A DNA stretch of 60,063 nt from Candidatus Gottesmanbacteria bacterium (GTDB lineage Bacteria > Patescibacteriota > Microgenomatia > 2-02-FULL-39-11): NCBI GenBank assembly GCA_016195685.1, contig JACPZE010000026.1:1-60063 (forward strand), read 5' to 3'. A program made the position numbers and the translations under genes. This document shows, piece after piece, positions 1 to 13,006 of the stretch (within the stretch, counting starts at the first letter, position 1; every line of letters begins with the position of its first letter). The notes under the pieces are model-generated. The model was not told where the DNA came from. It worked only from the letters and a program-made list of their open reading frames with translations, and did no database searches.

Positions 1-780
1 GGTAATTAGGTACATTCTACCGAAAATCGATTAAGATAAATAGTAGAATGGATCGCCGGAAATGTATATTTTGTAGATACTACCGTGCACGGGGCAATTC
101 TTTGGGTAGAATTTACTGCCCGAGATGCAAAAGGAGATATTCCTTTAAGAGAGCTGAAAGACTTGGAAAGATCATTGAATACTTTGCTTTGGAGATACCA
201 GCTAATAAAGCCAGCAAAGTATTGCACCTTAACTACAAGACCGTATACAGAGTCTACCAAAGACTCAGAGAGAAGATCGCTGGAAAAACCAAAGAAGAGT
301 TTAGAAAACTTTCTGGAGAGATTGAGATTGATGATGCCTACTTTGGTGGAAGAAGAAAGGGAAACAGAGGAAGAGCAGCTTCTGGAAAAACTCTTGTTCT
401 TGGCATGCTGGAGAGAGATGGAAGAGTATTTACCACTCTCCCAGAGAATCTCGAACTTGGACAAGTACTTGATGCCATTAGCAGGCATGCCGAGAAAGGC
501 AGTGTATTCTATACTGATCAATTTAGAAGCTACAAGTCCCTGTTTATCTATGGCAGACATCTGAGTCTTAATCATGCTGAGAAGTTTGCCAATGGGAGAG
601 TCCATATTAATGGTCTTGAAGGTTTCTGGTCCTTTGCAAAAGAGAGGATGCTTAAGTATCATGGGATATCTAAGAAACACTTTGCTCTTTACTTGAAGGA
701 ACTTGAGTTTCGATACAATCATAGAAAACAAGATTTAATAAAAATATTTACCGAATTATGGTAAAAAGTACCTAATTACC
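1..780 (+). mobile_element. IS1595-family insertion sequence
   Basis: 21-bp terminal inverted repeats, 19/21 identical (ggtaattaggtacattctacc at 1-21; reverse complement of 760-780 is ggtaattaggtactttttacc), enclosing one transposase ORF. Left flank and target duplication lie outside the window. Confidence 0.93.
48..764 (+). CDS. IS1595 (ISXO2-like) DDE transposase
   Basis: N-terminal CxxC..CxxC zinc finger; motifs EIDDAYFGG, YTDQFRSY, HINGLEGFWS, YLKELEFRYN. Stop codon falls inside the right TIR. Confidence 0.93.
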   Translation: MDRRKCIFCRYYRARGNSLGRIYCPRCKRRYSFKRAERLGKIIEYFALEIPANKASKVLHLNYKTVYRVYQRLREKIAGKTKEEFRKLSGEIEIDDAYFGGRRKGNRGRAASGKTLVLGMLERDGRVFTTLPENLELGQVLDAISRHAEKGSVFYTDQFRSYKSLFIYGRHLSLNHAEKFANGRVHINGLEGFWSFAKERMLKYHGISKKHFALYLKELEFRYNHRKQDLIKIFTELW

Positions 781-783
781 AGG

Positions 784-977
784 GTGAATATGTGACGGAG
801 GCGAAACCGTAAAAGTCAGCAACGAGTGTCGGAAACGGAGCTCGTCAGAAACAAGATTTTCTTACTGACGTGTCCCGATTTGATCGGGACATTTTTGTAA
901 GACGATAAATCAAGGTGGCACCACGAATAATTCGTCCTTGAGTATCCCCGCTTAGCGGGGAGAAAGGGGATTTTTTT
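784..977 (+). promoter_or_regulatory. T-box riboswitch (trp), stem I absent
   Basis: T-box aatcaaggTGGCaccacg (908-925); caagg 911-915 pairs with ccttg 936-940. Alternative terminator ends in T7 at 971-977, directly before the trpE ATG. S-turn-like GAA 786-788 / AGCA 818-821, F-box-like CTCGTCA 841-847, stem III 861-901. UGGC fits a G73 discriminator. No UGG specifier between the IS and the T-box. Confidence 0.85.
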
Positions 978-2342
978 ATGGATAATTTATTACCGAAAAT
1001 TAAATTAGGAAAATACCAGGAAGAGAAACTAGATTTATCTATTTCTGCTTTTGAGGCATTCAAAAGACTTTATCCTTATTTTAAGGATATATTTCTTTTG
1101 GAGTCACTAGGGGAGGAGGGGAAATTTAACAGATTTTCCTATATAGGATTTTCTCCGAAACTTATCATTTCGGCCAAAAATAAGGAATTGTTTATAAACG
1201 GAAAACTGATAAGTATTGAAAACCCGTACTTCTTTCTTTCAAAGTTAATGGAAAAATTCAAAAGCGCTGGGAATGGTTACTGTGGCGGCTTGGTAGGATT
1301 TTTCACTCATGAAGCTACGAAATACTTTGAACTTGCATTTACCGGGTACGAAAATTACGATTTTCCGGATTTCTTATGCGGATTTTTCTTGGATGGATTT
1401 CGTTTTGATAAAAAAACTAAGGAGGCCTTTTATTTCCATCACGGTGAATCAAGGCTTAAAAAGGTTTATCATCTTTTTCATAAGGAAGGCAAATTAGACA
1501 GCTTCCAGTTTGAGAAGCTGCAAAGTGCTAAAACAGAAAGTGACCATAAAGATATGGTTTTGAAGGCAAAAGAACATATAAAAAAGGGAGATATTTTTCA
1601 GGTTGTTTTAGCACTTAAGACTTTCTATAAAATTTCCGGGGACATAAGAAGGTTTTATGCGGTCCTTCGGCAAGTAAATCCAGCTCCGTACACTTTTTAT
1701 ATTAAATTTGGGGAAAGGATAGTAATTTCGGCTAGTCCTGAACTTCTTATCGGGGTAAAGGGAGATAAAATTGAGCATTTTGGAACACTGGCCGGAACAA
1801 TCAGACGTGGGGGAAACGATTTAGAGGATAATTTGCTGGCAGAGAAACTTTTAGGAGATGAGAAAGAGAAAGCAGAGCATATGATGTTGGTGGATTTAGC
1901 TCGAAACGATTTGGGTAGAATTTGTGAATTTGGAAGCGTCACGGTGGAAAAGCTATCAATAGTGAAAAAATACAGCCATGTACAGCATCTATATTCAGAA
2001 GTCAGGGGGAAACTCAAAAAGGGCGAGAATGCCTTTTCGGCTTTGGCTGCCTGTTTTCCGGCTGGTACTTTAACTGGTGCTCCCAAGATTGAGGCGATGA
2101 AAATAATAAAAAATCTGGAAAAAGAAGCAAGAGGTCCTTATGGTGGGGTGGGCGGATATTTTTCGCTAAATGGTGAGGCCATGCAGGCTATCACTATTCG
2201 TTCTATTTTTATTAATGGTAAGACTGCCTACACACAGACAGGTAGCGGAATTGTAGCTGATTCTGAACCAGAAAAAGAATATCAGGAGATTATAAATAAA
2301 CAAAAGGCAATTGAGGAGGCATTAAAACTCGCTAGTATATGA
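978..2342 (+). CDS. trpE: anthranilate synthase component I
   Basis: Chorismate-binding motifs GDIFQVVL, SPELL, EHMMLVDLARNDL, FPAGTLTGAPK; first gene of the trp operon. Confidence 0.92.
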   Translation: MDNLLPKIKLGKYQEEKLDLSISAFEAFKRLYPYFKDIFLLESLGEEGKFNRFSYIGFSPKLIISAKNKELFINGKLISIENPYFFLSKLMEKFKSAGNGYCGGLVGFFTHEATKYFELAFTGYENYDFPDFLCGFFLDGFRFDKKTKEAFYFHHGESRLKKVYHLFHKEGKLDSFQFEKLQSAKTESDHKDMVLKAKEHIKKGDIFQVVLALKTFYKISGDIRRFYAVLRQVNPAPYTFYIKFGERIVISASPELLIGVKGDKIEHFGTLAGTIRRGGNDLEDNLLAEKLLGDEKEKAEHMMLVDLARNDLGRICEFGSVTVEKLSIVKKYSHVQHLYSEVRGKLKKGENAFSALAACFPAGTLTGAPKIEAMKIIKNLEKEARGPYGGVGGYFSLNGEAMQAITIRSIFINGKTAYTQTGSGIVADSEPEKEYQEIINKQKAIEEALKLASI

Positions 2343-2917
2343 GAACACTTATTATTGATAACTATGATTCTTTTACTTATAACCTATACCAGTATATTGG
2401 GGAGTTGGGAGGAGAGCCTGATGTTGTGAGAAATGATCAATTAACGTTGCAAGATATTCAAACTAGAAAATATTCTCATATTGTTATTTCTCCGGGCCCG
2501 GGGGACCCTTCTGACGTGGCATATTTTGGAGTCTGCAAAGACGTAATTTTGACCTTTGGTAAAAATATACCTCTTTTGGGGGTATGTCTGGGGCATCAAG
2601 GGATAATTTATGCCTTGGGTGGCAAAGTCATAAGGGCTCCACTTATCAAGCATGGCAAAACTAGTGTAATCAAACATAACCAAAAAGAAATTTTTGAAAA
2701 TGTCAAAAACCCGCTAGTAGGTATGCGTTACCACTCACTGATTGGAGAAAAAGTGAGTCTGCCGGATAGTTTGGAGATAATCGCAATTTCAGCTGATGAC
2801 AAAGCTATTATGGGCGTTGCACATAAAAAATTCCCCATATTCGGAGTACAGTTTCATCCAGAATCGATAGGAACAGAAGAGGGAAAGAAAATTCTTACGA
2901 ATTTTCTATCAATATGA
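2339..2917 (+). CDS. trpG: anthranilate synthase component II (glutamine amidotransferase)
   Basis: IDNYDSFTYNL, SPGPG, GVCLGHQ, QFHPES. Confidence 0.93.
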   Translation: MRTLIIDNYDSFTYNLYQYIGELGGEPDVVRNDQLTLQDIQTRKYSHIVISPGPGDPSDVAYFGVCKDVILTFGKNIPLLGVCLGHQGIIYALGGKVIRAPLIKHGKTSVIKHNQKEIFENVKNPLVGMRYHSLIGEKVSLPDSLEIIAISADDKAIMGVAHKKFPIFGVQFHPESIGTEEGKKILTNFLSI

Positions 2918-3924
2918 TCAATATACTTCTGAACAAACTAATTGAAACAAAAGATTTAACACAAGAAGAAGCCATATGTTTGATGGAAGAAATCTTGGAG
3001 GGAAATCTTACTTCGGCCCAGATTGCAGCCATTCTTGTAGCTTTAAGAATGAAAGAAGAGATACCCGAGGAAATATTAGGATTTATCAAAGTTATGAGAA
3101 AACATATGGTGAAAATTAAAACTAAGGGGTTAGTGATAGATACTTGCGGTACGGGTGGGGATGGGAAGGGAACTTTTAATATCTCAACCGCAGTTGCTTT
3201 TGTGATTGTCGGAGCAGGTGTTTCAGTCGCCAAACACGGCAACAGAAATGCCAGTTCTGCCTGTGGCAGTGCGGATGTACTTGAAGCATTGGGAGTCAAC
3301 ATCAACTTGACGCCAAAAGAGGCAGAAAAGATGCTTTCAAAAACTAAATTTACCTTTTTATTTGCGCCTCTCTATCATCCAGCCATGAGACATGTTGGGG
3401 AAGTCAGAAAAGAGCTAAAAATAAGGACAGTTTTTAATTTCTTAGGCCCGTTTGCCAGTCCGGCGAGTGTCAGGCGGCAAATCATTGGCGTTCCAAATAT
3501 AAAACTAGCCGGGAAACTAGCTAAGGTTGCCTCAAATCTGAATTACGATCATTTATTGTTAGTAACAAGTGAGGATGGATTGGATGAGATAAGTCTATCT
3601 TCCCCAACGCATATTTTTGAAGTTAAGGGAAAACAAGTTAAAAAAATGATTATTAATGGAAAGGACTATGGATTTGAAAAGTCCTCACTTGTCGAAATTA
3701 AAGGGGGAGATGCAAAAAGGAATGCTGAAATAATCAAAGATATTATGAAAGGTAAGAATGGACCTTGTAAAGATATTATCGTTTTAAATAGTGCAGTAGG
3801 ACTTTATGTAGCAGGTAAGGTAAAAAATATTGGTGAGGGACTTAAATTTGCTCAAAAATCAATAGAAGAAGGAAATGCAAAAAAAGTATTGGCAATGGTT
3901 ATCAAATATTCACGATATCTATGA
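2914..3924 (+). CDS. trpD: anthranilate phosphoribosyltransferase
   Basis: DTCGTGGDG, TFNISTA, KHGNR, RTVFNFLGP, GLDEIS. Confidence 0.96.
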   Translation: MINILLNKLIETKDLTQEEAICLMEEILEGNLTSAQIAAILVALRMKEEIPEEILGFIKVMRKHMVKIKTKGLVIDTCGTGGDGKGTFNISTAVAFVIVGAGVSVAKHGNRNASSACGSADVLEALGVNINLTPKEAEKMLSKTKFTFLFAPLYHPAMRHVGEVRKELKIRTVFNFLGPFASPASVRRQIIGVPNIKLAGKLAKVASNLNYDHLLLVTSEDGLDEISLSSPTHIFEVKGKQVKKMIINGKDYGFEKSSLVEIKGGDAKRNAEIIKDIMKGKNGPCKDIIVLNSAVGLYVAGKVKNIGEGLKFAQKSIEEGNAKKVLAMVIKYSRYL

Positions 3925-4661
3925 AAAACAAACTTACACAGATACTGGACAATAAAATGAAAGAAGTTTCCCAGAAAAAGAAAAAAAGAGATTTCTTAGG
4001 GGCAATAACAAATCCCAAAATGGGAGATATTTCAATAATTGCTGAGATTAAACTTGCATCTCCGACTGCCGGTAAGTTAGGAGAAGAAAAAGATATAGAA
4101 AAACAGGTATTAATGTATGAAAAAAGTTATGCTGATGGGATTTCCGTAGTAGTCGACAAAAAATATTTTGACGGAGAGTTGGAATTTATCAAACAAATTA
4201 AAAATACAGTTTCTCTTCCGCTCCTAGCCAAGGATTTTATCATCGATCCTTATCAGATTTATGAAGCAAAACTTTACGGAGCTGACGCAATATTATTGAT
4301 AGCAAAGATATTGACCAAAAAGAAACTCCAGAAATTTGTCAAACATTGTTTTGATGCTGGGTTGGAACCGGTAGTTGAAGTACAGAATAAAAAAGAGTTG
4401 GAAAAAGTGTTGAATATTGGTACTAGGATTATTGCTGTGAACGCACGAGGTCTGTCAACTTTTAAGGTAGACGTAGACGGAGCATGTCAGCTGATCAAAA
4501 GTATTCCAAAAGAGTTTGTAAGTTTGGGTTTTTCAGGAGTCTTGGGGATAAATGAGGTAGAACAATATAAGAAAGCCGGTGCAAAAGGAATATTGGTGGG
4601 AATAACCCTAATGAAATCAAAAAATCCCGGAAAAGTTATAAAGGAGTTTAAAGGATTATGA
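3921..4661 (+). CDS. trpC: indole-3-glycerol phosphate synthase
   Basis: IIAEIKLASPT, LLAKDFIIDPYQI, GADAILLI, VNARGL. Confidence 0.93.
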   Translation: MKNKLTQILDNKMKEVSQKKKKRDFLGAITNPKMGDISIIAEIKLASPTAGKLGEEKDIEKQVLMYEKSYADGISVVVDKKYFDGELEFIKQIKNTVSLPLLAKDFIIDPYQIYEAKLYGADAILLIAKILTKKKLQKFVKHCFDAGLEPVVEVQNKKELEKVLNIGTRIIAVNARGLSTFKVDVDGACQLIKSIPKEFVSLGFSGVLGINEVEQYKKAGAKGILVGITLMKSKNPGKVIKEFKGL

Positions 4662-5278
4662 AAGTAAAAGTAAAAATTTGTGGTGTCAAGACATTGGAAG
4701 CTGCACAGGCTAGTATTAACGCGGGAGCTGACTTTTTGGGATTTAATTTTGTGCCGACTTCAAAACGTTTAATGAGTAATGGAATCGCCAAGCAAATTAT
4801 CGATGAGTTGCCAAAAACAATAGCAAAAGTTGGAGTATTTATGGATGCGGATATTTTGGAAATCCATAAATTAATTAATTACTTGAAACTTGATTATGTT
4901 CAGTTGCATGGCAATGAATCACCTAAATACGTTTCATCGGTGCAGGGAGCTGGAATAATAAAAACTATTTCATTACCTATTGAGTTTGATGTCGAAAAAA
5001 CAAAACAGAAAATGAAAAAATATCAAGTTGATTATTTTTTATTAGACAGAGAAGAACAGGGAAGGGGAAAAATGTTAGATTTAGATATGGTAAAGGAGTT
5101 AACTTCAGCCTTCCCCATCATTTTAGCTGGAGGATTAACAGTTGAAAATGTTTCTCAAACGGTTAAATTAGCTCATCCTCAAGTCGTAGATGTGGCCGGC
5201 GGAGTAGAGGCAAATGGGGCAAAAGATAAAGAAAGAATCACCGAATTTATAAAAAACGCTAAACTTTATGATATTTGA
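4658..5278 (+). CDS. trpF: phosphoribosylanthranilate isomerase
   Basis: [32 protein letters not shown]. Confidence 0.94.
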
Positions 5279-6518
5279 TTTTCATACCAAATACGATGGT
5301 GACGGTAAAGGACATTTCGGAGAATACGGTGGCAGATTTGCTCCGGAAATGCTTATACCTGCCTTGGAAGAATTAGAGGCAGCATATAAAAATGCTAAAA
5401 AAGATAAAAAATTTGAGCAGGAATTTTTAGAATTGCTTCATAGTTTCGCCGGCAGACCTACTCCTTTAACTTTTGCCAAAAATCTCACAAAGAAATTAAA
5501 CGGCGCCAAAATTTACTTCAAAAACGAAGGACTAAATATAACAGGCGCCCATAAAATTACACACTGTTTAGGTCAGGCGCTACTGGCAAAAAAAATGGAT
5601 AAAAAGAGGATAATCGCAGAAACTGGGGCGGGTCAGCACGGAGTAGCTGCCGCCACAGTGGCTGCTAAATTTGGGTTTTCCTGCACTGTATATATGGGGG
5701 AAGTGGATGTTGCCCGACAAAGACCAAACGTTTTCTGGATGCAGCAGCTGGGGGCGGAAGTGATACCGGTGAAATTTGGCAGCAGGACTCTTAAAGACGC
5801 AGTCAATGCAGCATTGAAAGATTGGATAACGAATGTAGAGAGTACACATTATTTACTCGGTTCTACTGTAGGCCCTCATCCGTTTCCAACCATCAATCGT
5901 GATTTTCAATCAGTGGTCGGAATGGAAGTTAAAGAACAGATTAAGAAATCAGAAGGAAGGCTGCCGGATTATCTGATAGCCTGTGTGGGAGGAGGTAGTA
6001 ACGCAATAGGACTTTTTTACAGATTTTTGAATGATGGAAAAGTGAAAATGATAGGTGTTGAAGCAGGAGGTAGAGGTGTAGAAAAGATAGGAGATCATGC
6101 CACCAGATTTTACGGCGGAGAAACAGGAGTGGTAGAGGGGTATAAATCCGTATTTTTGCAGGATGAGTATGGCAATTTAGCACTAACTCACAGTGTCTCG
6201 GCAGGGTTGGATTATCCAGGAATAGGTCCGCAACTGGCATATCTGAAAGAGCAAGGCAGGGCCGATTTTACATATGCAACGGATAAAGAAGTACTGGATG
6301 CGTTTAAACTATTAGCAAAAACTGAAGGAATAATTTGCGCTTTAGAATCAGCTCACGCAGTGGCGGGAGCGATAAAACTTGTACCTACACTTTCTAAAGA
6401 CAAGATAGTTGTAGTAAATCTTTCAGGAAGAGGGGATAAAGATATTTTCATAGTGGCCGAGGCACTAAAAGATAAAGAGTGGAGAGATTTTATAAGGAGT
6501 AAAGTGTATGAATATTAA
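5268..6518 (+). CDS. trpB: tryptophan synthase beta chain
   Basis: GAHKI (PLP lysine), [37 protein letters not shown]. Confidence 0.97.
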
Positions 6519-6522
6519 TTTA

Positions 6523-6677
6523 CGGGTCTTGCATATTATTAAAAATATAAATTTTTCAGACTCTGCAGCTCGCGCTCGGTATATCCCTTACCTTCTGTCC
6601 ATGTACCTTATTATTCTCACGCTCAATTGCAGAGATCTTCAAAATTTCTATTTTTAAACATGATCTCGCGTCACCCG
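6523..6677. repeat. nested palindromic element: family A arms enclosing a family B element
   Basis: Arms cgggtcttg...ctcgcgtcacccg match copies at 39642, 43540 and 55562; inner 6545-6647 matches 26745-26853. Confidence 0.85.
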
Positions 6678-6694
6678 CTATTAAAATAAATGTT

Positions 6695-7495
6695 ATGAAT
6701 GCTATAGAAAAAAAACTAATTCAATTAAAAAAAGAAAATAGATTAGGTCTTATAGCTCATGCAGTTTTGGGTTATCCGAATATGGAGAAAAGTTTAGAGA
6801 TTATAAATAGTTTAATTTCAAATGGCAGCGATTTTTTGGAATTGCAAATACCATTTTCTGATCCGGTAGCGGATGGGGAGACAATTATGAAAGCTTGCGA
6901 AGTAGCCTTGAAAAGCGGAATGAATACAGATGAGGCTTTTGAACTTGTTGGTAATTTAAGAAGGGCTGTTAACGTACCTATATTACTTATGGCTTATTAC
7001 AATACGATTTTTCGATACGGAATAAAGAGATTTTGCAAAAAAGCAAAAGATTTAAGAGTTTCTGGGATAATTGTTCCGGATATTCCACCTGAGGAAGAGA
7101 TAGCAGAGAAATTTATAACTACTTCCTTAGAATATGATATTTATCCGATCCGTGTAGTTTCACCCTCAAGTAGTATTAATAGGTTGGAAATCAATGCACG
7201 ATTTGCCAGAGGATTTGTATATTGTATAAGTCATTTTGGGGTTACTGGAACAAAGACAGTAGTTGACGATCGGCTTACAAGATATTTGCAAAGAGTTAAA
7301 CAAATTATGAAATTACCCGTTGCAGTAGGATTTGGACTTTCAAAAGCAGAGCAGATAGAAGCATTAAAAGGTGTTGCAGATATTGTAATCGTGGGAAGCG
7401 CAATTATCAAAAATTATAATGAGGGAGGAATAAAGCAAGTAAGCTCGTTTATAAAAAGTTTAAAAGAAAGTACAATGGGGAAAGGATATATATGA
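6695..7495 (+). CDS. trpA: tryptophan synthase alpha chain
   Basis: LELQIPFSDPVADGETI, LLMAYYN, IVPDIPPEE, VGFGLS, VGSAII. Confidence 0.96.
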   Translation: MNAIEKKLIQLKKENRLGLIAHAVLGYPNMEKSLEIINSLISNGSDFLELQIPFSDPVADGETIMKACEVALKSGMNTDEAFELVGNLRRAVNVPILLMAYYNTIFRYGIKRFCKKAKDLRVSGIIVPDIPPEEEIAEKFITTSLEYDIYPIRVVSPSSSINRLEINARFARGFVYCISHFGVTGTKTVVDDRLTRYLQRVKQIMKLPVAVGFGLSKAEQIEALKGVADIVIVGSAIIKNYNEGGIKQVSSFIKSLKESTMGKGYI

Positions 7496-8193
7496 GAGGA
7501 TTAGGAACAATTTTCAACGTTATTACTGTACTAATTGGTGGCAGCCTGGGACTTCTTATCGGTTCACGATTTAATAAAGACTTAAATAAAGCAGTGATAG
7601 GGGTAAATGGATTCGTATCAATGGTTATTGGTATTCAGATGGCGTTTACCTCAAAGAATATTTTGATTGTTTTAATAAGTTTGGCATTGGGAGTAATTAT
7701 CGGTGAAATTATTGATATTGAAGGGCGACTGCAGAGGTTTAGTCAACATATGGAAGATAAATTCGGCCGCGGTGAGGAAGGAAAATTTGCCAAAGGATTT
7801 CTGACTACAAGTATCCTTTTTTGTGTGGGGCCACTCACAATACTGGGTTCTTTACAGGACGGACTTACGGGTGATATTAAACTACTTGCAACCAAATCGA
7901 TCCTTGATGGTTTTTCTTCTATAGTATTTGCTTCTGCATTTGGAGTAGGAGTGATGTTTACCATAATAACAATTATAGTCGTGCAGGGGAGTCTTACTCT
8001 TCTTGCTGGTACATTGAGTGGAATACTGACACAAGCAGTAATTGCCGAACTGACCGGAGTTGGTGGTATCATGGTAATATCAATCGGTTTGGGACTGTTA
8101 GAGATAAAAAAATACAAGACTGCCAACATGTTACCGGCACTTTTGATTGCGCCGATAATAGTTATGTTATTAACTTATTTTAAATTTATATGA
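7492..8193 (+). CDS. DUF554-family multi-pass membrane protein
   Basis: GTIFNVITVLIGGSLG start, LFCVGPLTILGSLQDGL, KSILDGFSS; mostly hydrophobic helices. Confidence 0.85.
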   Translation: MRGLGTIFNVITVLIGGSLGLLIGSRFNKDLNKAVIGVNGFVSMVIGIQMAFTSKNILIVLISLALGVIIGEIIDIEGRLQRFSQHMEDKFGRGEEGKFAKGFLTTSILFCVGPLTILGSLQDGLTGDIKLLATKSILDGFSSIVFASAFGVGVMFTIITIIVVQGSLTLLAGTLSGILTQAVIAELTGVGGIMVISIGLGLLEIKKYKTANMLPALLIAPIIVMLLTYFKFI

Positions 8194-9704
8194 CAGATCC
8201 AAAAGTAAAAAAATACAGTGAGGAGTTGAAAAAGTTGGGCATTGAACACGAAATTTTGAAACATCCACAACTGGTTTCAGTTGAGGCGGTACAAAAATAT
8301 CTAGGATATGGTTTGGAAGATGCTGGAGCAACGCTCGTAATTAAGGTAGATGATAAGTTTATTGCCATAATTAGAAGGGGAGATACGAAATTAGATAATG
8401 AAAGAGTAAAAAAATATCTGGGTGTTGCCAATCTTCGAATGGCAAATGAAGAAGAATTTACAAAACTTACCGGAGTTCCAAGCGGTGCGGCTAGCGTCTA
8501 TATTCCCAGTTTGCCGACATATATAGACAAAAAAATCTTTGAAAAAGAATACATAAACGCAGGATCAGGAAGTCTTCTCTATACTTTCCGATACAAGACT
8601 AGTGATTTGAAAAAAATTCCAGGTATCAAAGTAGTTGATTTCACATCGATAGAATCAGAAAAGAAGAGTTCTTTAATTGATATAAAGGGAAAAAGGATTC
8701 TCTCTGGCATAACACCAAGTGGTGATGGCACTTTGCATATCGGTAATTACTTGGGAGCAGTAAAGCAGTTTATTGAATTTGCGAAAAATGGTGATTGTTA
8801 TCTTATGGTTGCGGATCTGCATGCGCTTACAACCATACAAAATAAAGCACAACTACAAAAGAATACGGAAACGTTGATCTTAAACGAACTTGCTTTATTA
8901 GGAAACCTTACAAATATCGTCTTTTTTAGACAATCTGATGTGCCGATGCACGCGGAGTTGACTTGGATCTTAAATAACGTTACTCCTCTGGGACTTTTAC
9001 GTCGCGCTCATGCATACAAAGATAAACTTTCAAAGGACGTGATGGAAGATGAAATAAACTTGGGGCTTTTTAATTACCCGATTCTTATGGCATCAGATAT
9101 ACTACTTTATAAACCAGATTTTGTACCTGTCGGGCGCGATCAGAAACAGCATATAGAAATCTGTCGGGATATTGCGGGAAGATTAAATAAGACATATAAA
9201 TCTGACGTTTTAAAACTTCCGAAACCATATATCCCGGAAGATGTAGCAGTAGTCATGGGTACTGATGGAAAGAGAAAAATGAGTAAATCTTTGGGGAATA
9301 TCATAAGTATATTTGATGATGAAATTGTAATAAAAAAACAAGTGATGAGTACTTATACGGATCCTACAAGAATTCATTCGAATGATCTGGGACATATAGA
9401 AGGGAATATGGTATTTGCATACCTTGATTTCTTTGGTGAAAAAAACAAAGTTTCAGAACTGAAAGATTTATACAAAGAGGGTAAAGTAGCGGATGTGGAA
9501 GTGAAAAATTATTTATTTGAGTCGTTGATGAAAACATTTAAAGATGCGCGAGTCCGATATCAGGAGCTTAAAAATAACCCACAAAAAGTTACAAAGATAT
9601 TATCGAATGGAGCAGATAGAGCTCGAGAGGTAGCTGGAAAAACCATGATGGAGGTGCGGGATGCGATAGGGTTGACCAATAATTACTCGTTCTTCAAATA
9701 TTAA
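8190..9704 (+). CDS. trpS: tryptophanyl-tRNA synthetase with N-terminal YbaK/ProX-like domain
   Basis: HIGN and KMSKS motifs, VPVGRDQKQH. The first ~150 aa resemble YbaK/INS-type editing domains (LRMANEEEF, TGVPSGA, NAGSGS). Confidence 0.92.
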   Translation: MTDPKVKKYSEELKKLGIEHEILKHPQLVSVEAVQKYLGYGLEDAGATLVIKVDDKFIAIIRRGDTKLDNERVKKYLGVANLRMANEEEFTKLTGVPSGAASVYIPSLPTYIDKKIFEKEYINAGSGSLLYTFRYKTSDLKKIPGIKVVDFTSIESEKKSSLIDIKGKRILSGITPSGDGTLHIGNYLGAVKQFIEFAKNGDCYLMVADLHALTTIQNKAQLQKNTETLILNELALLGNLTNIVFFRQSDVPMHAELTWILNNVTPLGLLRRAHAYKDKLSKDVMEDEINLGLFNYPILMASDILLYKPDFVPVGRDQKQHIEICRDIAGRLNKTYKSDVLKLPKPYIPEDVAVVMGTDGKRKMSKSLGNIISIFDDEIVIKKQVMSTYTDPTRIHSNDLGHIEGNMVFAYLDFFGEKNKVSELKDLYKEGKVADVEVKNYLFESLMKTFKDARVRYQELKNNPQKVTKILSNGADRAREVAGKTMMEVRDAIGLTNNYSFFKY

Positions 9705-9768
9705 TACCCATTTCACTTCGCTTGGTTGTCATAGGACTGGAAGTAATATATAATGAATCACTTTCGAC

Positions 9769-10104
9769 ATGAAAGATGTTATTTCTTTTCCTGATTTTGA
9801 CAAATTGGACTTAAGAGTGGGGAGAGTGGTAAGCGCTGAAAGAGTAGAGGGGTCAGACAATCTTATAAGATTATTAGTCGATCTGGGAAAAGAATACGGT
9901 GAGCGGAAAATATTTACCGGAATTGCCAAATGGTATAAACAATCACAGCTTAAAGGGAAGAAATTTGTTTTCCTTGTAAATCTAGCTCCAAAACAAATGA
10001 TGAAAGAGATGAGCGAAGGCATGATTTTATGCGCTGATTTCGACCCAAAAGCAGTTATCATACCGGTTGATAAGAAGATACCAGAGGGAGGAGTTGTTAG
10101 ATAA
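9769..10104 (+). CDS. stand-alone OB-fold tRNA-binding protein (Trbp111/CsaA/MetRS C-terminal-like)
   Basis: FPDFDKLDLRVGRV, VDLG, VNLAPKQMM..SEGMIL. Confidence 0.88.
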   Translation: MKDVISFPDFDKLDLRVGRVVSAERVEGSDNLIRLLVDLGKEYGERKIFTGIAKWYKQSQLKGKKFVFLVNLAPKQMMKEMSEGMILCADFDPKAVIIPVDKKIPEGGVVR

Positions 10105-10130
10105 TTGATCTAATTAACCTCATTTCTAAA

Positions 10131-12026
10131 ATGCCAAATAATAAAAAAGTGAATCCAAAAAACGGGTATCCCAAAAACCTTAAGAAAATCTTCGAGTTTA
10201 AGGTCAACCTGACCCCGAAAAATATATTCCTGTGGCTGATAATTGGTTTTATCATACTTCTCATGTTTGTAGGAAGCCGTGATGTAACTAAACTTTTCCC
10301 AGAGAAGTCTCTTTCTACTTTAGTAGGTGATATTAAAAGTGGACAGGTGAAAAAAGTAGAAGTGATGGATACCAAACTATTGGCAACGTATAAAGATGAT
10401 AAGATTTATTCTTCGCACAAAGAAGGGCAGGATTCTTTTGACAAAACACTTTCAAACTTTGGAGTAGATCCAAAATCTGTGGAAATTAAAGTGAACGATA
10501 CTTCCGGAGGGGCTCTTTGGTTAAATATTTTATCCAACGTACTTCCATTGGTTTTGATGGTCGGGTTTTTCCTTTTTCTTATAAGACAAGCCAGAGGCGC
10601 ACAAGATACTCTTTTTTCTTTTGGGCAGTCCAGGGCAAAACTTTTCTCAAAAGATACTCCAAAAGTAACTTTTGCAGACGTAGCGGGTGTGGACGAAGCC
10701 AAAATGGAATTATCAGAAGTAGTGGATTTTCTGAAAAACCCCCAAAAATACCAAGCACTGGGAGCCAGAACCCCCAAAGGAGTGTTATTGGTAGGTCCCA
10801 GTGGTACTGGAAAGACGCTTTTAGCAAGAGCACTGGCCGGAGAAGCAAAGGCGCCATTTTTCTCCATGGCAGGATCGGAATTTATGGAAATGTTGGTAGG
10901 AGTGGGTGCTTCCCGAGTACGTGATCTTTTCAATACTGCCAAGAAAAATTCTCCAGCTATTATCTTTATCGATGAAATAGATGCAATAGGAAGGATGAGA
11001 TCTGTAGGAGTGATGGGCGGTCATGATGAAAGAGAACAAACTTTAAACCAGATATTAGTAGAGATGGATGGGTTTACTCAAAGTGAAAATGTGATAGTCG
11101 TAGCAGCGACCAACAGAGGTGATTTACTTGATCCGGCTTTACTTCGTCCGGGCCGTTTCGATAGAAGAGTAGTTTTGGATCTTCCCGATATAGAAGGAAG
11201 AAAAGCGATTTTAAATATTCATGTGAAGGGGAAGCCAGTGGCGAAAGATGTGGATTGGGACAAAGTAGCCAAAAGAACAGTTGGTTTTTCTGGTGCGGAT
11301 CTTGCCAATATGTTAAATGAGGCAGCAATTTTGGCGGCTCGTAAAAACCAGACGGAAATACTGATGGAGGATATGGAAGAAGCAGCGACGAAAGTCAAAC
11401 TAGGACCGGAAAAAAAGAGGTTGCAAACCGATTTAGACCGCAAAATGACAGCTTATCATGAAGCTGGTCATGCCATCGTGACACACATACTTCCGAATAT
11501 GGATCCTGTGCATCGAATATCGATAGTCTCTAGGGGTATGGCTTTGGGTTTTACCCTTATTCCTCCACAAAAAGACAGAATCCATGAGACCCGTACCCAT
11601 CTGTTGGAAGAGATTGCTTCCATGTTGGGTGGTCGTGCGGCAGAAGAGTTAATTTTTAATGAAATGACATCCGGAGCATCAAATGACATAGATAAAGCGA
11701 CCATGGTAGCCCGTGAAATGGTAGTGGAGTTTGGTATGTCAACACTTGGGCCGATAAACTTTGGACCAACTATGGATACTACTGAGTGGGGAGGCAGGTA
11801 TTATAACGAAACTCAGGTTTCCCAAGAAATGCAAAGTAAAATTGACCGCGAAGTGAAATTAATAATAGATGATTGTTATAAAAAGGCACAATTAATATTA
11901 AAGAAATTCAAAAATAAACTTGATTTGGTAGCTGAAGCACTCATCAAAAGAGAAACTTTGGAGCGTGAAGATTTCGAAAAACTGATTGGCTACCCCAAAC
12001 CTGCAATAATTCTTGCAAAAGCATAA
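10131..12026 (+). CDS. ftsH: ATP-dependent zinc metalloprotease FtsH
   Basis: Two TM helices, Walker A GPSGTGKT, Walker [24 protein letters not shown]. Confidence 0.97.
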
Positions 12027-12064
12027 AGTACCCCAAAAGCAACTTATGCTAAAATAAACCAACA

Positions 12065-13006
12065 ATGAAACGGCTTGTTGTAATCGATGGTCATGCTATT
12101 TTACATCGTGCCTATCACGCTCTTCCGCCTCTTACCACCTCCAAGGGACTGATTGTCAATGCAGTTTACGGGTTCGCATCGATATTGCTTCGGGTTATTG
12201 AAAGTTTACAACCAACCCATCTGGTAGTTGCTTTTGATACCCCGGAGCCTACTTTTCGAAACAAGTTATTTAAAGATTATCAGATACAAAGGCCGAAAGT
12301 AGATGATGAATTCATTCCTCAAATAAATCTTGTAAAAAAACTTGTACAAGAGATGGGTATCCCCACTTTTGAAAAAGTAGGATATGAGGCAGATGACGTG
12401 ATCGGTACAATTGCGAAGAAAGCAAATGCTGATGAAGTGATTATCGTCACTGGGGATCGCGATATTTTGCAGTTAGTCGATGATAAAGTAGGGGTTTATA
12501 TGCCCGTGAAAGGAATATCTGAATCAAAGCTTTACAAGAAAGAAGAGGTAGAAGAAAAATTTGGAGTAAGTCCATCACAAATAATTGACTATAAGGCTTT
12601 GGTAGGGGATCAATCTGATAATTACCCGGGAGTAGCAGGAATAGGACCTAAAACCGCAAGTACTCTTTTACAACGATTTCAGACTCTTGAACAGATTTAT
12701 AAGAACAAAAAAGATATAGAAAGTGAAAAGGTAAAAAAAGCCCTGGATGACTATCTGAAATCAGCCCAGATGGCAAAAAAACTAGCGACGATTGTTACCG
12801 ATGTACCGCTTGAGTTTAATGTAGATGAATGTAAATTACCCAATCTTGATAAACCCAATATTCATAGATTGTTTGAAGAGTTTGAATTCAGAACTTTGAT
12901 AACTAGGTTATCAGGAAATAAAACACAATCCCGCCGCAGCGGGATCCACGATGCTGTAATCCCGATTAAATCAGGAACAGCATCGGGACAAACGTCTCTT
13001 TTCTAA
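12065..13006 (+). CDS. stand-alone 5'-3' exonuclease / flap endonuclease (PolA N-terminal domain)
   Basis: IDGHAILHRAYHA, YEADDVIG, TGDRD, GDQSDNYPGVAGIGPKTA; no polymerase domain; ends QTSLF. Confidence 0.92.
   Translation: MKRLVVIDGHAILHRAYHALPPLTTSKGLIVNAVYGFASILLRVIESLQPTHLVVAFDTPEPTFRNKLFKDYQIQRPKVDDEFIPQINLVKKLVQEMGIPTFEKVGYEADDVIGTIAKKANADEVIIVTGDRDILQLVDDKVGVYMPVKGISESKLYKKEEVEEKFGVSPSQIIDYKALVGDQSDNYPGVAGIGPKTASTLLQRFQTLEQIYKNKKDIESEKVKKALDDYLKSAQMAKKLATIVTDVPLEFNVDECKLPNLDKPNIHRLFEEFEFRTLITRLSGNKTQSRRSGIHDAVIPIKSGTASGQTSLF

Follow-up and report, generated by a model that had tools for sequence, protein, structure and literature searches.

Bacterial prolyl-tRNA synthetase (ProRS), a class II enzyme, carries an inserted INS domain (structures 5znj and 2j3l) that has a strict lysine and a GxxxP loop and clears Ala-tRNA-Pro. 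The family lysine is K279 of E. coli ProRS, K46 of YbaK and K45 of ProXp-ala. The same fold is found in the free ProX and YbaK proteins (APE2540, 1wdv; T. thermophilus, 2cx5 and 2z0k; H. influenzae YbaK, 1dbu; E. coli, 2dxa), which bear the lysine and act in trans on tRNA-Pro species. To our knowledge about half of the aminoacyl-tRNA synthetases have a known editing domain, and tryptophanyl-tRNA synthetase (TrpRS) is not among them. Here we describe a trpS gene that encodes a domain of this fold at the N-terminus of a bacterial-type TrpRS, in a stretch of 60,063 nucleotides (the window) from a Candidatus Gottesmanbacteria bacterium (GCA_016195685.1, contig JACPZE010000026.1, positions 1 to 60,063 of the forward strand).

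The ProRS INS domain is the best sequence match to this N-terminal domain (profile E 3.3e-15, same fold). The two have the R-G-D/H, E89, loop-glycine, D113 and G125 motifs in common and both lie in cis to a synthetase, but here the domain stands at the N-terminus of a class I enzyme, its lysine site holds Ala, Ser or Pro, and position 62 is Arg or Lys rather than Val, Leu or Ile. The free ProX and YbaK proteins are its nearest structures; they are similar in size and, like it, are patchily distributed accessory proteins. The cytosolic TrpRS of P. falciparum also has an appended N-terminal editing-type domain of doubtful editing role, but its fold is that of AlaX and the AlaRS editing domain and not of YbaK, the synthetase is eukaryotic and the origin is unrelated (PMC3680381). 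In the ProXp-ala-ProRS fusions of Plasmodium and Trypanosoma an INS-superfamily domain is likewise N-terminal and joined by a flexible linker, whereas the lysine and the GxxxP loop are kept, Ala-tRNA-Pro is edited and the synthetase is ProRS (PMC11286415). Finally, the tRNA-binding module of Trbp111, CsaA and the C-terminal domain of methionyl-tRNA synthetase (MetRS; family PF01588) is found with TrpRS here rather than with MetRS, and as in MetRS it is either fused at the C-terminus or encoded by a separate gene.

Full-text searches, whose coverage left out most subscription journals, returned no paper describing an INS/YbaK domain on a bacterial TrpRS. The nearest was a remark made by Mukai et al. 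2017 (PMC5370408) in a figure legend on the bacteria-type TrpRS of Microgenomates, the same lineage; the subject of that paper is the archaeal-type TrpRS-A/ORF1 system, and the fused domains were neither identified nor analysed there. The INS fold itself is known, and what is new here is a lysine-less INS-fold domain, proposed to be rewired, that is dedicated to TrpRS. The best explanation of our observations is a modular TrpRS, typical of some Microgenomatia of the candidate phyla radiation (CPR), in which a charging body is combined with an accessory INS/YbaK-fold domain and a Trbp111-type module.

Fold, conservation and the lysine site of the N-terminal domain

PF04073 (tRNA_edit) matched residues 25-142 of the 504-residue fusion protein (E 5.5e-20; 72.1 bits against a cut-off of 25.5; profile positions 1-122 of 123) and PF00579 matched residues 169-451 (E 3.5e-59). 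The full-length AlphaFold model, with a predicted local distance difference test score (pLDDT) of 87.5, showed two confident domains separated by a disordered linker at residues 156-162. Residues 1-160 modelled alone gave a pLDDT of 93.5 and a predicted template-modelling score of 0.86. Foldseek aligned the N-domain model to ProX APE2540 (1wdv) with an E-value of 7e-13, template-modelling (TM) scores of 0.84/0.89 and a root-mean-square deviation (rmsd) of 1.7 Å; over the ProX/YbaK structures as a whole TM scores were 0.78-0.89 and rmsd 1.7-2.5 Å. Other structural matches were T. thermophilus ProX (2cx5, 2z0k), YbaK (1dbu, 2dxa) and the ProRS INS domain (5znj, 2j3l). A first-pass annotation, made from the DNA alone, had noticed about 150 extra N-terminal residues with a YbaK/ProX-like pattern and had proposed a hidden Markov model search and a structure prediction. 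Both match the YbaK fold, and at the level of profile and model they confirm the N-terminus as a true YbaK/INS-fold domain. The TrpRS body scored 286.2 bits against TIGR00233 (trpS; cut-off 176.75) and superimposed on C. jejuni TrpRS (3tzl) with a target-normalised TM score of 0.92 and an rmsd of 2.3 Å at 41% identity. It carries the class I motifs TLHIGN, of the HIGH type (about residues 181-186), and KMSKS (residues 363-367), of which H183, K363, M364 and K366 are invariant across the fusion family.

To describe the conservation of the domain an alignment was made of 100 first and 15 second domains of relatives, some of which carry two copies. L13, H25, E89, G99, D113, G125 and G127 never vary, conservation of R63 and D65 is 98% or higher, and T94 and S128 are nearly invariant; these motifs are largely those common to the ProRS INS domain. 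Pairwise identity averages 0.55 in the N-domain and 0.50 in the TrpRS body. The word degenerate, used in the first-pass annotation, is thus misleading for a domain that is conserved like the synthetase it is joined to, keeps its core motifs and has a clade-specific basic residue at position 62. The family contains two types of TrpRS body that are 37% identical to each other, while their N-domains are 53% identical. In a FastTree, midpoint-rooted tree of the N-domains, enzymes with the body type of this TrpRS, for which C. jejuni TrpRS is the best PDB match, fall inside lineages that carry the other body, which tentatively suggests that the synthetase body was swapped or recombined while the domain was kept.

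The motif DAGATLVIK occupies residues 44-52 (nucleotides 8319-8345), and in both pairwise and profile alignments its Ala47 (8328-8330) lies under the conserved lysine of the ProRS INS domain 5znj, of ProX 1wdv and of 3op6 and 2dxa. In the same alignments GAASV (residues 99-103, nucleotides 8484-8498) falls under GSLGP, i.e. the GxxxP loop. That the lysine of the K-T-L motif reads A-T-L here and that the loop reads GAASV had been pointed out from the sequence, and both observations hold. In the relatives the lysine column is A in 72%, S in 19% and P in 6%, and K never, and divergent fused members (28-32% identical; genomes G094, G033 and G265) read LATM, VPTI and VANI at this site. The last position of the loop is V in 66%, I in 26% and P in 3% of first domains, P in 80% of second domains, and P or L in the divergent members.

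A basic residue is found on the strand neighbouring position 47, at Arg62 (nucleotides 8373-8375). Because DSSP assigns strands 45-53 and 56-63 in the model, with a turn of two residues between them, residues 47 and 62 are expected to pair across the hairpin with their side chains on the same face. Position 62 is R in 83% and K in 16% of the first domains and R in all 15 second domains (100%), and it is R also in the divergent fused members. We then compared the two columns in the best 150 cluster representatives of a profile search run exhaustively over 1.84 billion proteins; both could be scored in 147 domain copies. Where lysine is present at column 47 none of 89 copies has R or K at column 62 (L, V or I being found instead), and where it is absent 34 of 58 do. 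In a tree of the representatives the sequences without the lysine make up, in essence, a single clade (50 of 51), and the basic state at 62 changes about five times inside this clade and never outside it, which would place the loss of the lysine at about a single event. The pattern at 47 and 62 fits a move of the phosphate-binding charge onto the adjacent strand.

Distribution of the fusion and the Trbp111-type module

A word-indexed search returned 106 proteins, almost all of them with PF04073 and PF00579 and 20 with PF01588 at the C-terminus as well. Source names among the 106 include Microgenomates, Roizmanbacteria and Patescibacteria, and the closest relatives by named records are from Gottesmanbacteria and Levybacteria. 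In genomes of the same class TrpRS was found in 288 of 301, mostly as plain frames of about 330-380 amino acids; this tally includes one unpublished genome (G068, plain TrpRS) on which no claim depends. Twenty of the 301 genomes, the host counted, match the domain strongly (E 3e-37 or better), 19 times in frames of 479-784 amino acids and once free-standing (a 169-residue frame in genome G012). Within the host's own family it is present in 8 of the 18 other genomes. Tandem paralogous lysine-less domains occur in proteins P0003, P0008, P0011 and P0035, where the second copy sits at the position of the linker.

In sister genera a plain TrpRS of 339-346 amino acids, 74-79% identical to the body of the fusion and aligning with it from end to end without insertions or deletions, directly follows trpA. 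Because these plain orthologues hold the same operon slot the domain is, on this comparison, accessory and is gained and lost among close kin, and because they exist the TrpRS body should need no N-domain for tRNA binding. A role in compensating for a defective body was rejected in view of the same full-length alignments. The fused trpS directly follows trpB-trpA here and in loci L019, L023, L025-L027 and L040. Just 6 of the 20 domain-bearing genomes, the host among them, have trpA, and a general link of the domain to tryptophan biosynthesis was for this reason also rejected; trpA occurs as well in 12 genomes without a strong domain match.

Most short matches are fragments on contigs under 2 kb, with few genuine free-standing copies (G012 and locus L038). 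Free-standing lysine-less proteins of 147-162 amino acids that closely resemble this domain (P0108 and P0123-P0134) read LPTL, VPTL or IASL at the lysine site and GAARV in the loop; such copies are rare and lie mostly on short soil-metagenome contigs, with loci that include L030:4840-5328 and L038:3866-4450. The free-standing gene of G012 adjoins a gene for an SNase-type nuclease, near sigma-70 and dnaG and away from trpS.

The 111-residue protein encoded after trpS in the window matches PF01588 (tRNA_bind) over profile positions 1-94 of 96 (E 5.3e-24; 84.6 bits, cut-off 27) and remains below the cut-off of TIGR00399 (metG_C_term, MetRS beta subunit; 103.9 against 116.65). It is 38-55% identical to the C-terminal domain of the 20 fused relatives, and by this likeness it is a detached third module of the TrpRS family. 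It had first been annotated as a free tRNA-binding protein; a tRNA-binding gene is indeed adjacent, but the word free does not stand, since the module is fused at the C-terminus in those relatives. A Trbp111-type gene adjoins trpS in L023, L027, L062, L064 and L066 and is also listed for L040. In this last locus (Gottesmanbacteria RIFCSPHIGHO2_02_FULL_39_14) a small open reading frame (ORF) with a putative PIN-like N-terminus lies between the fused trpS and the Trbp111 gene (L040:5867-6292). The Trbp111 gene also follows some plain trpS genes, and the N-domain and Trbp111 are therefore independent additions. A complex prediction with the TrpRS body (residues 165-504) and the 111-residue protein gave a score of 0.00, which speaks neither for nor against binding.

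A possible checkpoint on tRNA-Trp and its alternatives

The first-pass annotation had offered two readings, an editing TrpRS of new specificity or a catalytically dead domain put to use in binding; it is partly supported, and the choice still lies between these two. We favour, with a probability of roughly 0.45, a role of the domain as a post-transfer checkpoint on tRNA-Trp with a rewired site. In this reading charging would be done by the TrpRS body, which is of the ordinary bacterial kind. Arg62, across the hairpin from position 47, would supply the positive charge with which the lysine normally holds the phosphate of A76, and because of this replacement the pocket would still accept the aminoacylated CCA end of tRNA-Trp once it has left the synthetic site. 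With the retained backbone of the Gly99 loop and the ribose of the substrate acting as in other INS enzymes, the domain would be an optional checkpoint that hydrolyses wrong aminoacyl-tRNA-Trp, and candidate substrates may be bulky near-cognates (Tyr, Phe or Trp analogues) or D-Trp. The tandem paralogous subtypes and the rare free-standing copies would suit catalytic modules with a specificity of their own, and the accessory status of the domain may be likened to that of trans-editing factors. The stronger claim, that this is a working TrpRS editing domain which carries out INS chemistry without the lysine by means of an arginine on the neighbouring strand and so forms a new INS branch with a bulky or D-amino-acid substrate, is tentative and less likely than not.

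Several points weigh against a checkpoint. We know of no need for editing by TrpRS. The host already has a D-aminoacyl-tRNA deacylase (DTD) and a lysine-bearing free ProX-like protein. No member has the lysine, and in the main subclade Val or Ile takes the place of the loop proline. The pairing of 47 with 62 rests on secondary-structure strings, 24 of the 58 representatives without the lysine have no basic residue at 62, and since the lysine-less sequences form essentially one clade the column statistics overstate the number of independent events. Characterised members of the INS superfamily all use the conserved lysine together with the GxxxP loop (PMC11286415), and for that reason the lysine-less clade fails a defining feature of the family's known mechanism, yet it clearly belongs to the fold family.

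These same losses speak for the main rival, a non-hydrolytic tRNA-handling module that binds the acceptor end of tRNA-Trp, charged or uncharged, after losing the deacylase chemistry: the lysine is gone in all members and the loop proline in most. The domain and Trbp111 would in that case raise the affinity for tRNA, protect the labile Trp ester or aid the hand-off to EF-Tu, a tandem copy could serve avidity, and the same enzymes independently acquire Trbp111, a general tRNA-binding module. There is a precedent in the AlaX-like domain of P. falciparum TrpRS, which is thought to bind tRNA and not to edit (PMC3680381), and YbaK folds are also found in the non-editing proteins SadB (9qzk) and Maqu_0641 (3mem). 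On the other hand the plain orthologues, at 74-79% identity, do without the domain and their bodies have no changes that would make up for it, the motifs of the pocket, among them the loop glycine, are invariant and not relaxed, and free-standing copies occur away from trpS; we consider such a binder unlikely, if still a serious competitor. A pocket that binds free tryptophan, an indole compound or another metabolite and tunes TrpRS is a good deal less probable. The position of the gene at the end of the trp operon, here and in the loci listed above, would suit a small-ligand sensor of this kind, as would the mostly small residues of the pocket columns (A47, A100, A101, G125, S126, G127 and S128) and the occurrence of YbaK-like folds in signalling proteins, but most domain-bearing genomes are without trpA (only 6 of 20 have it), so that the tie to tryptophan synthesis is not general, and the conserved motifs are those that INS enzymes use for the aminoacyl-A76 end.

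Bacterial TrpRS charges D-Trp, and as a special case of the checkpoint the domain could deacylate D-Trp-tRNA-Trp. An Asp/Glu-type racemase gene lies directly upstream of the fused trpS in two genomes, a thin lead towards D-amino acids, as this holds for only 2 of about 24 loci examined; the host moreover has a normal DTD and its only PF01177 gene is on another contig, and we regard this substrate as improbable. The racemase loci are L039:2564-5467, on the Candidatus Levybacteria chromosome OY970292.1 with a Trp-repressor-family gene before the racemase, and L058:3845-6105 (G020); in neither does a trp operon lie beside the gene. Least of all could the fusion be an artefact, in which a lost stop or an assembly error joined a separate YbaK-like gene to trpS; we found nothing in its favour and put the chance close to nil. 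The survey of its distribution that the first-pass annotation had called for found the same continuous ORF, with no in-frame stops, in over 100 proteins from independent samples, and because it recurs in these and in 19 other genomes of the class the fusion is neither chance nor the product of a lost stop.

Gene row, host genome and significance

The features around the fusion gene are listed in the table below; the whole row from trpE to the Trbp111-type gene is co-oriented.

Table. Features of the trp-trpS region, in positions of the window.
Feature	Position	Strand	Evidence
trpE-trpG-trpD-trpC-trpF-trpB-trpA (tryptophan biosynthesis)	978..7495	+	NCBIfam matches, ORF layout
DUF554 membrane protein, between trpA and trpS and overlapping both	7492..8193	+	PF04474, E 4.7e-76
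trpS fusion gene, 504 amino acids: INS/YbaK-fold domain, flexible linker and bacterial-type TrpRS	8190..9704	+	ORF, Pfam
N-terminal INS/YbaK-fold domain, residues 1-155	8190..8654	+	PF04073, model, Foldseek, column statistics
Linker, residues 156-168, predicted flexible	8655..8693	+	pLDDT under 50 at residues 156-162
Bacterial-type TrpRS catalytic and anticodon-binding body, residues 169-504	8694..9704	+	TIGR00233, fold, motifs
Trbp111 / MetRS-C-terminal-type tRNA-binding protein, 111 amino acids	9769..10104	+	PF01588

The ATG of the trpS fusion overlaps the stop codon of the DUF554 gene (ATGA), which is kept in the same slot in the relative locus L023, and the Trbp111-type ORF starts 64 bases after the end of the fusion in a different frame. 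An Rfam search of positions 1-13000 of the window at the gathering threshold found no T-box and no other RNA family.

The host genome (1.19 Mb, 93% complete) has the fusion ORF as its sole TrpRS, the other class Ic match being a 409-residue frame on another contig, and encodes one tRNA-Trp(CCA), in which the pair A1-U72 is bacterial and G73 is the discriminator. From its sequence the fusion TrpRS would fit a housekeeping role with a tRNA-Trp of bacterial identity. Two further substitutions were considered. DTD is present in the genome, and the idea that the domain replaces a missing D-aminoacyl-tRNA deacylase was accordingly rejected. The host ProRS is of the INS-less type, but a canonical free ProX-like protein of 176 amino acids that keeps the lysine (GAKAILAK) and has the loop GALPP is encoded on another contig, which makes it unlikely that the domain replaces a missing ProRS INS. 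PF01588 occurs at only two places in the genome, beside trpS and in a CsaA-type gene by proS. At the latter (host contig C7, locus L016:282-2863, minus strand) a putative ornithine-cyclodeaminase-like ORF of 340 amino acids, the CsaA-type protein (108 amino acids) and the compact INS-less ProRS (401 amino acids) are arranged head to tail. This layout mirrors that of the trpS locus, with amino-acid synthesis genes, a synthetase and a tRNA-binding protein in succession.

Upstream of fused trpS genes without a trp operon we observed mostly proteins without a Pfam family. Two neighbourhoods stand apart. In genome G027 a second class I Trp/Tyr-type synthetase-like gene (L063:7855-9036, 392 amino acids, PF00579 E 1e-31) closely precedes a four-module TrpRS of 780 amino acids, made of two editing-fold domains, the body and Trbp111, and this second gene may correspond to the TrpRS-A system of Mukai et al. 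2017. In G036, a genome with no trpA match, a 469-residue PALP-family protein (L064:2564-3973) is encoded directly before a trpS with two editing-fold domains; at 34% identity to TrpB it is perhaps TrpB2-like.

A proofreading-fold domain dedicated to TrpRS is informative either way, since it would point either to an unknown fidelity problem at tryptophan codons or to the conversion of an editing fold for the handling of tRNA. The clade without the lysine, with a basic residue on the adjoining strand, is a natural experiment on how an active site can be rewired and tests how essential the lysine is. The mixing of modules among close kin, with plain enzymes, one or two editing-fold domains, and Trbp111 absent, fused or split, shows domain accretion by a synthetase in very small genomes. 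As the sole TrpRS of a groundwater bacterium with a tiny genome, the fusion may be a sign of proofreading or handling of tRNA-Trp of a kind not yet studied.

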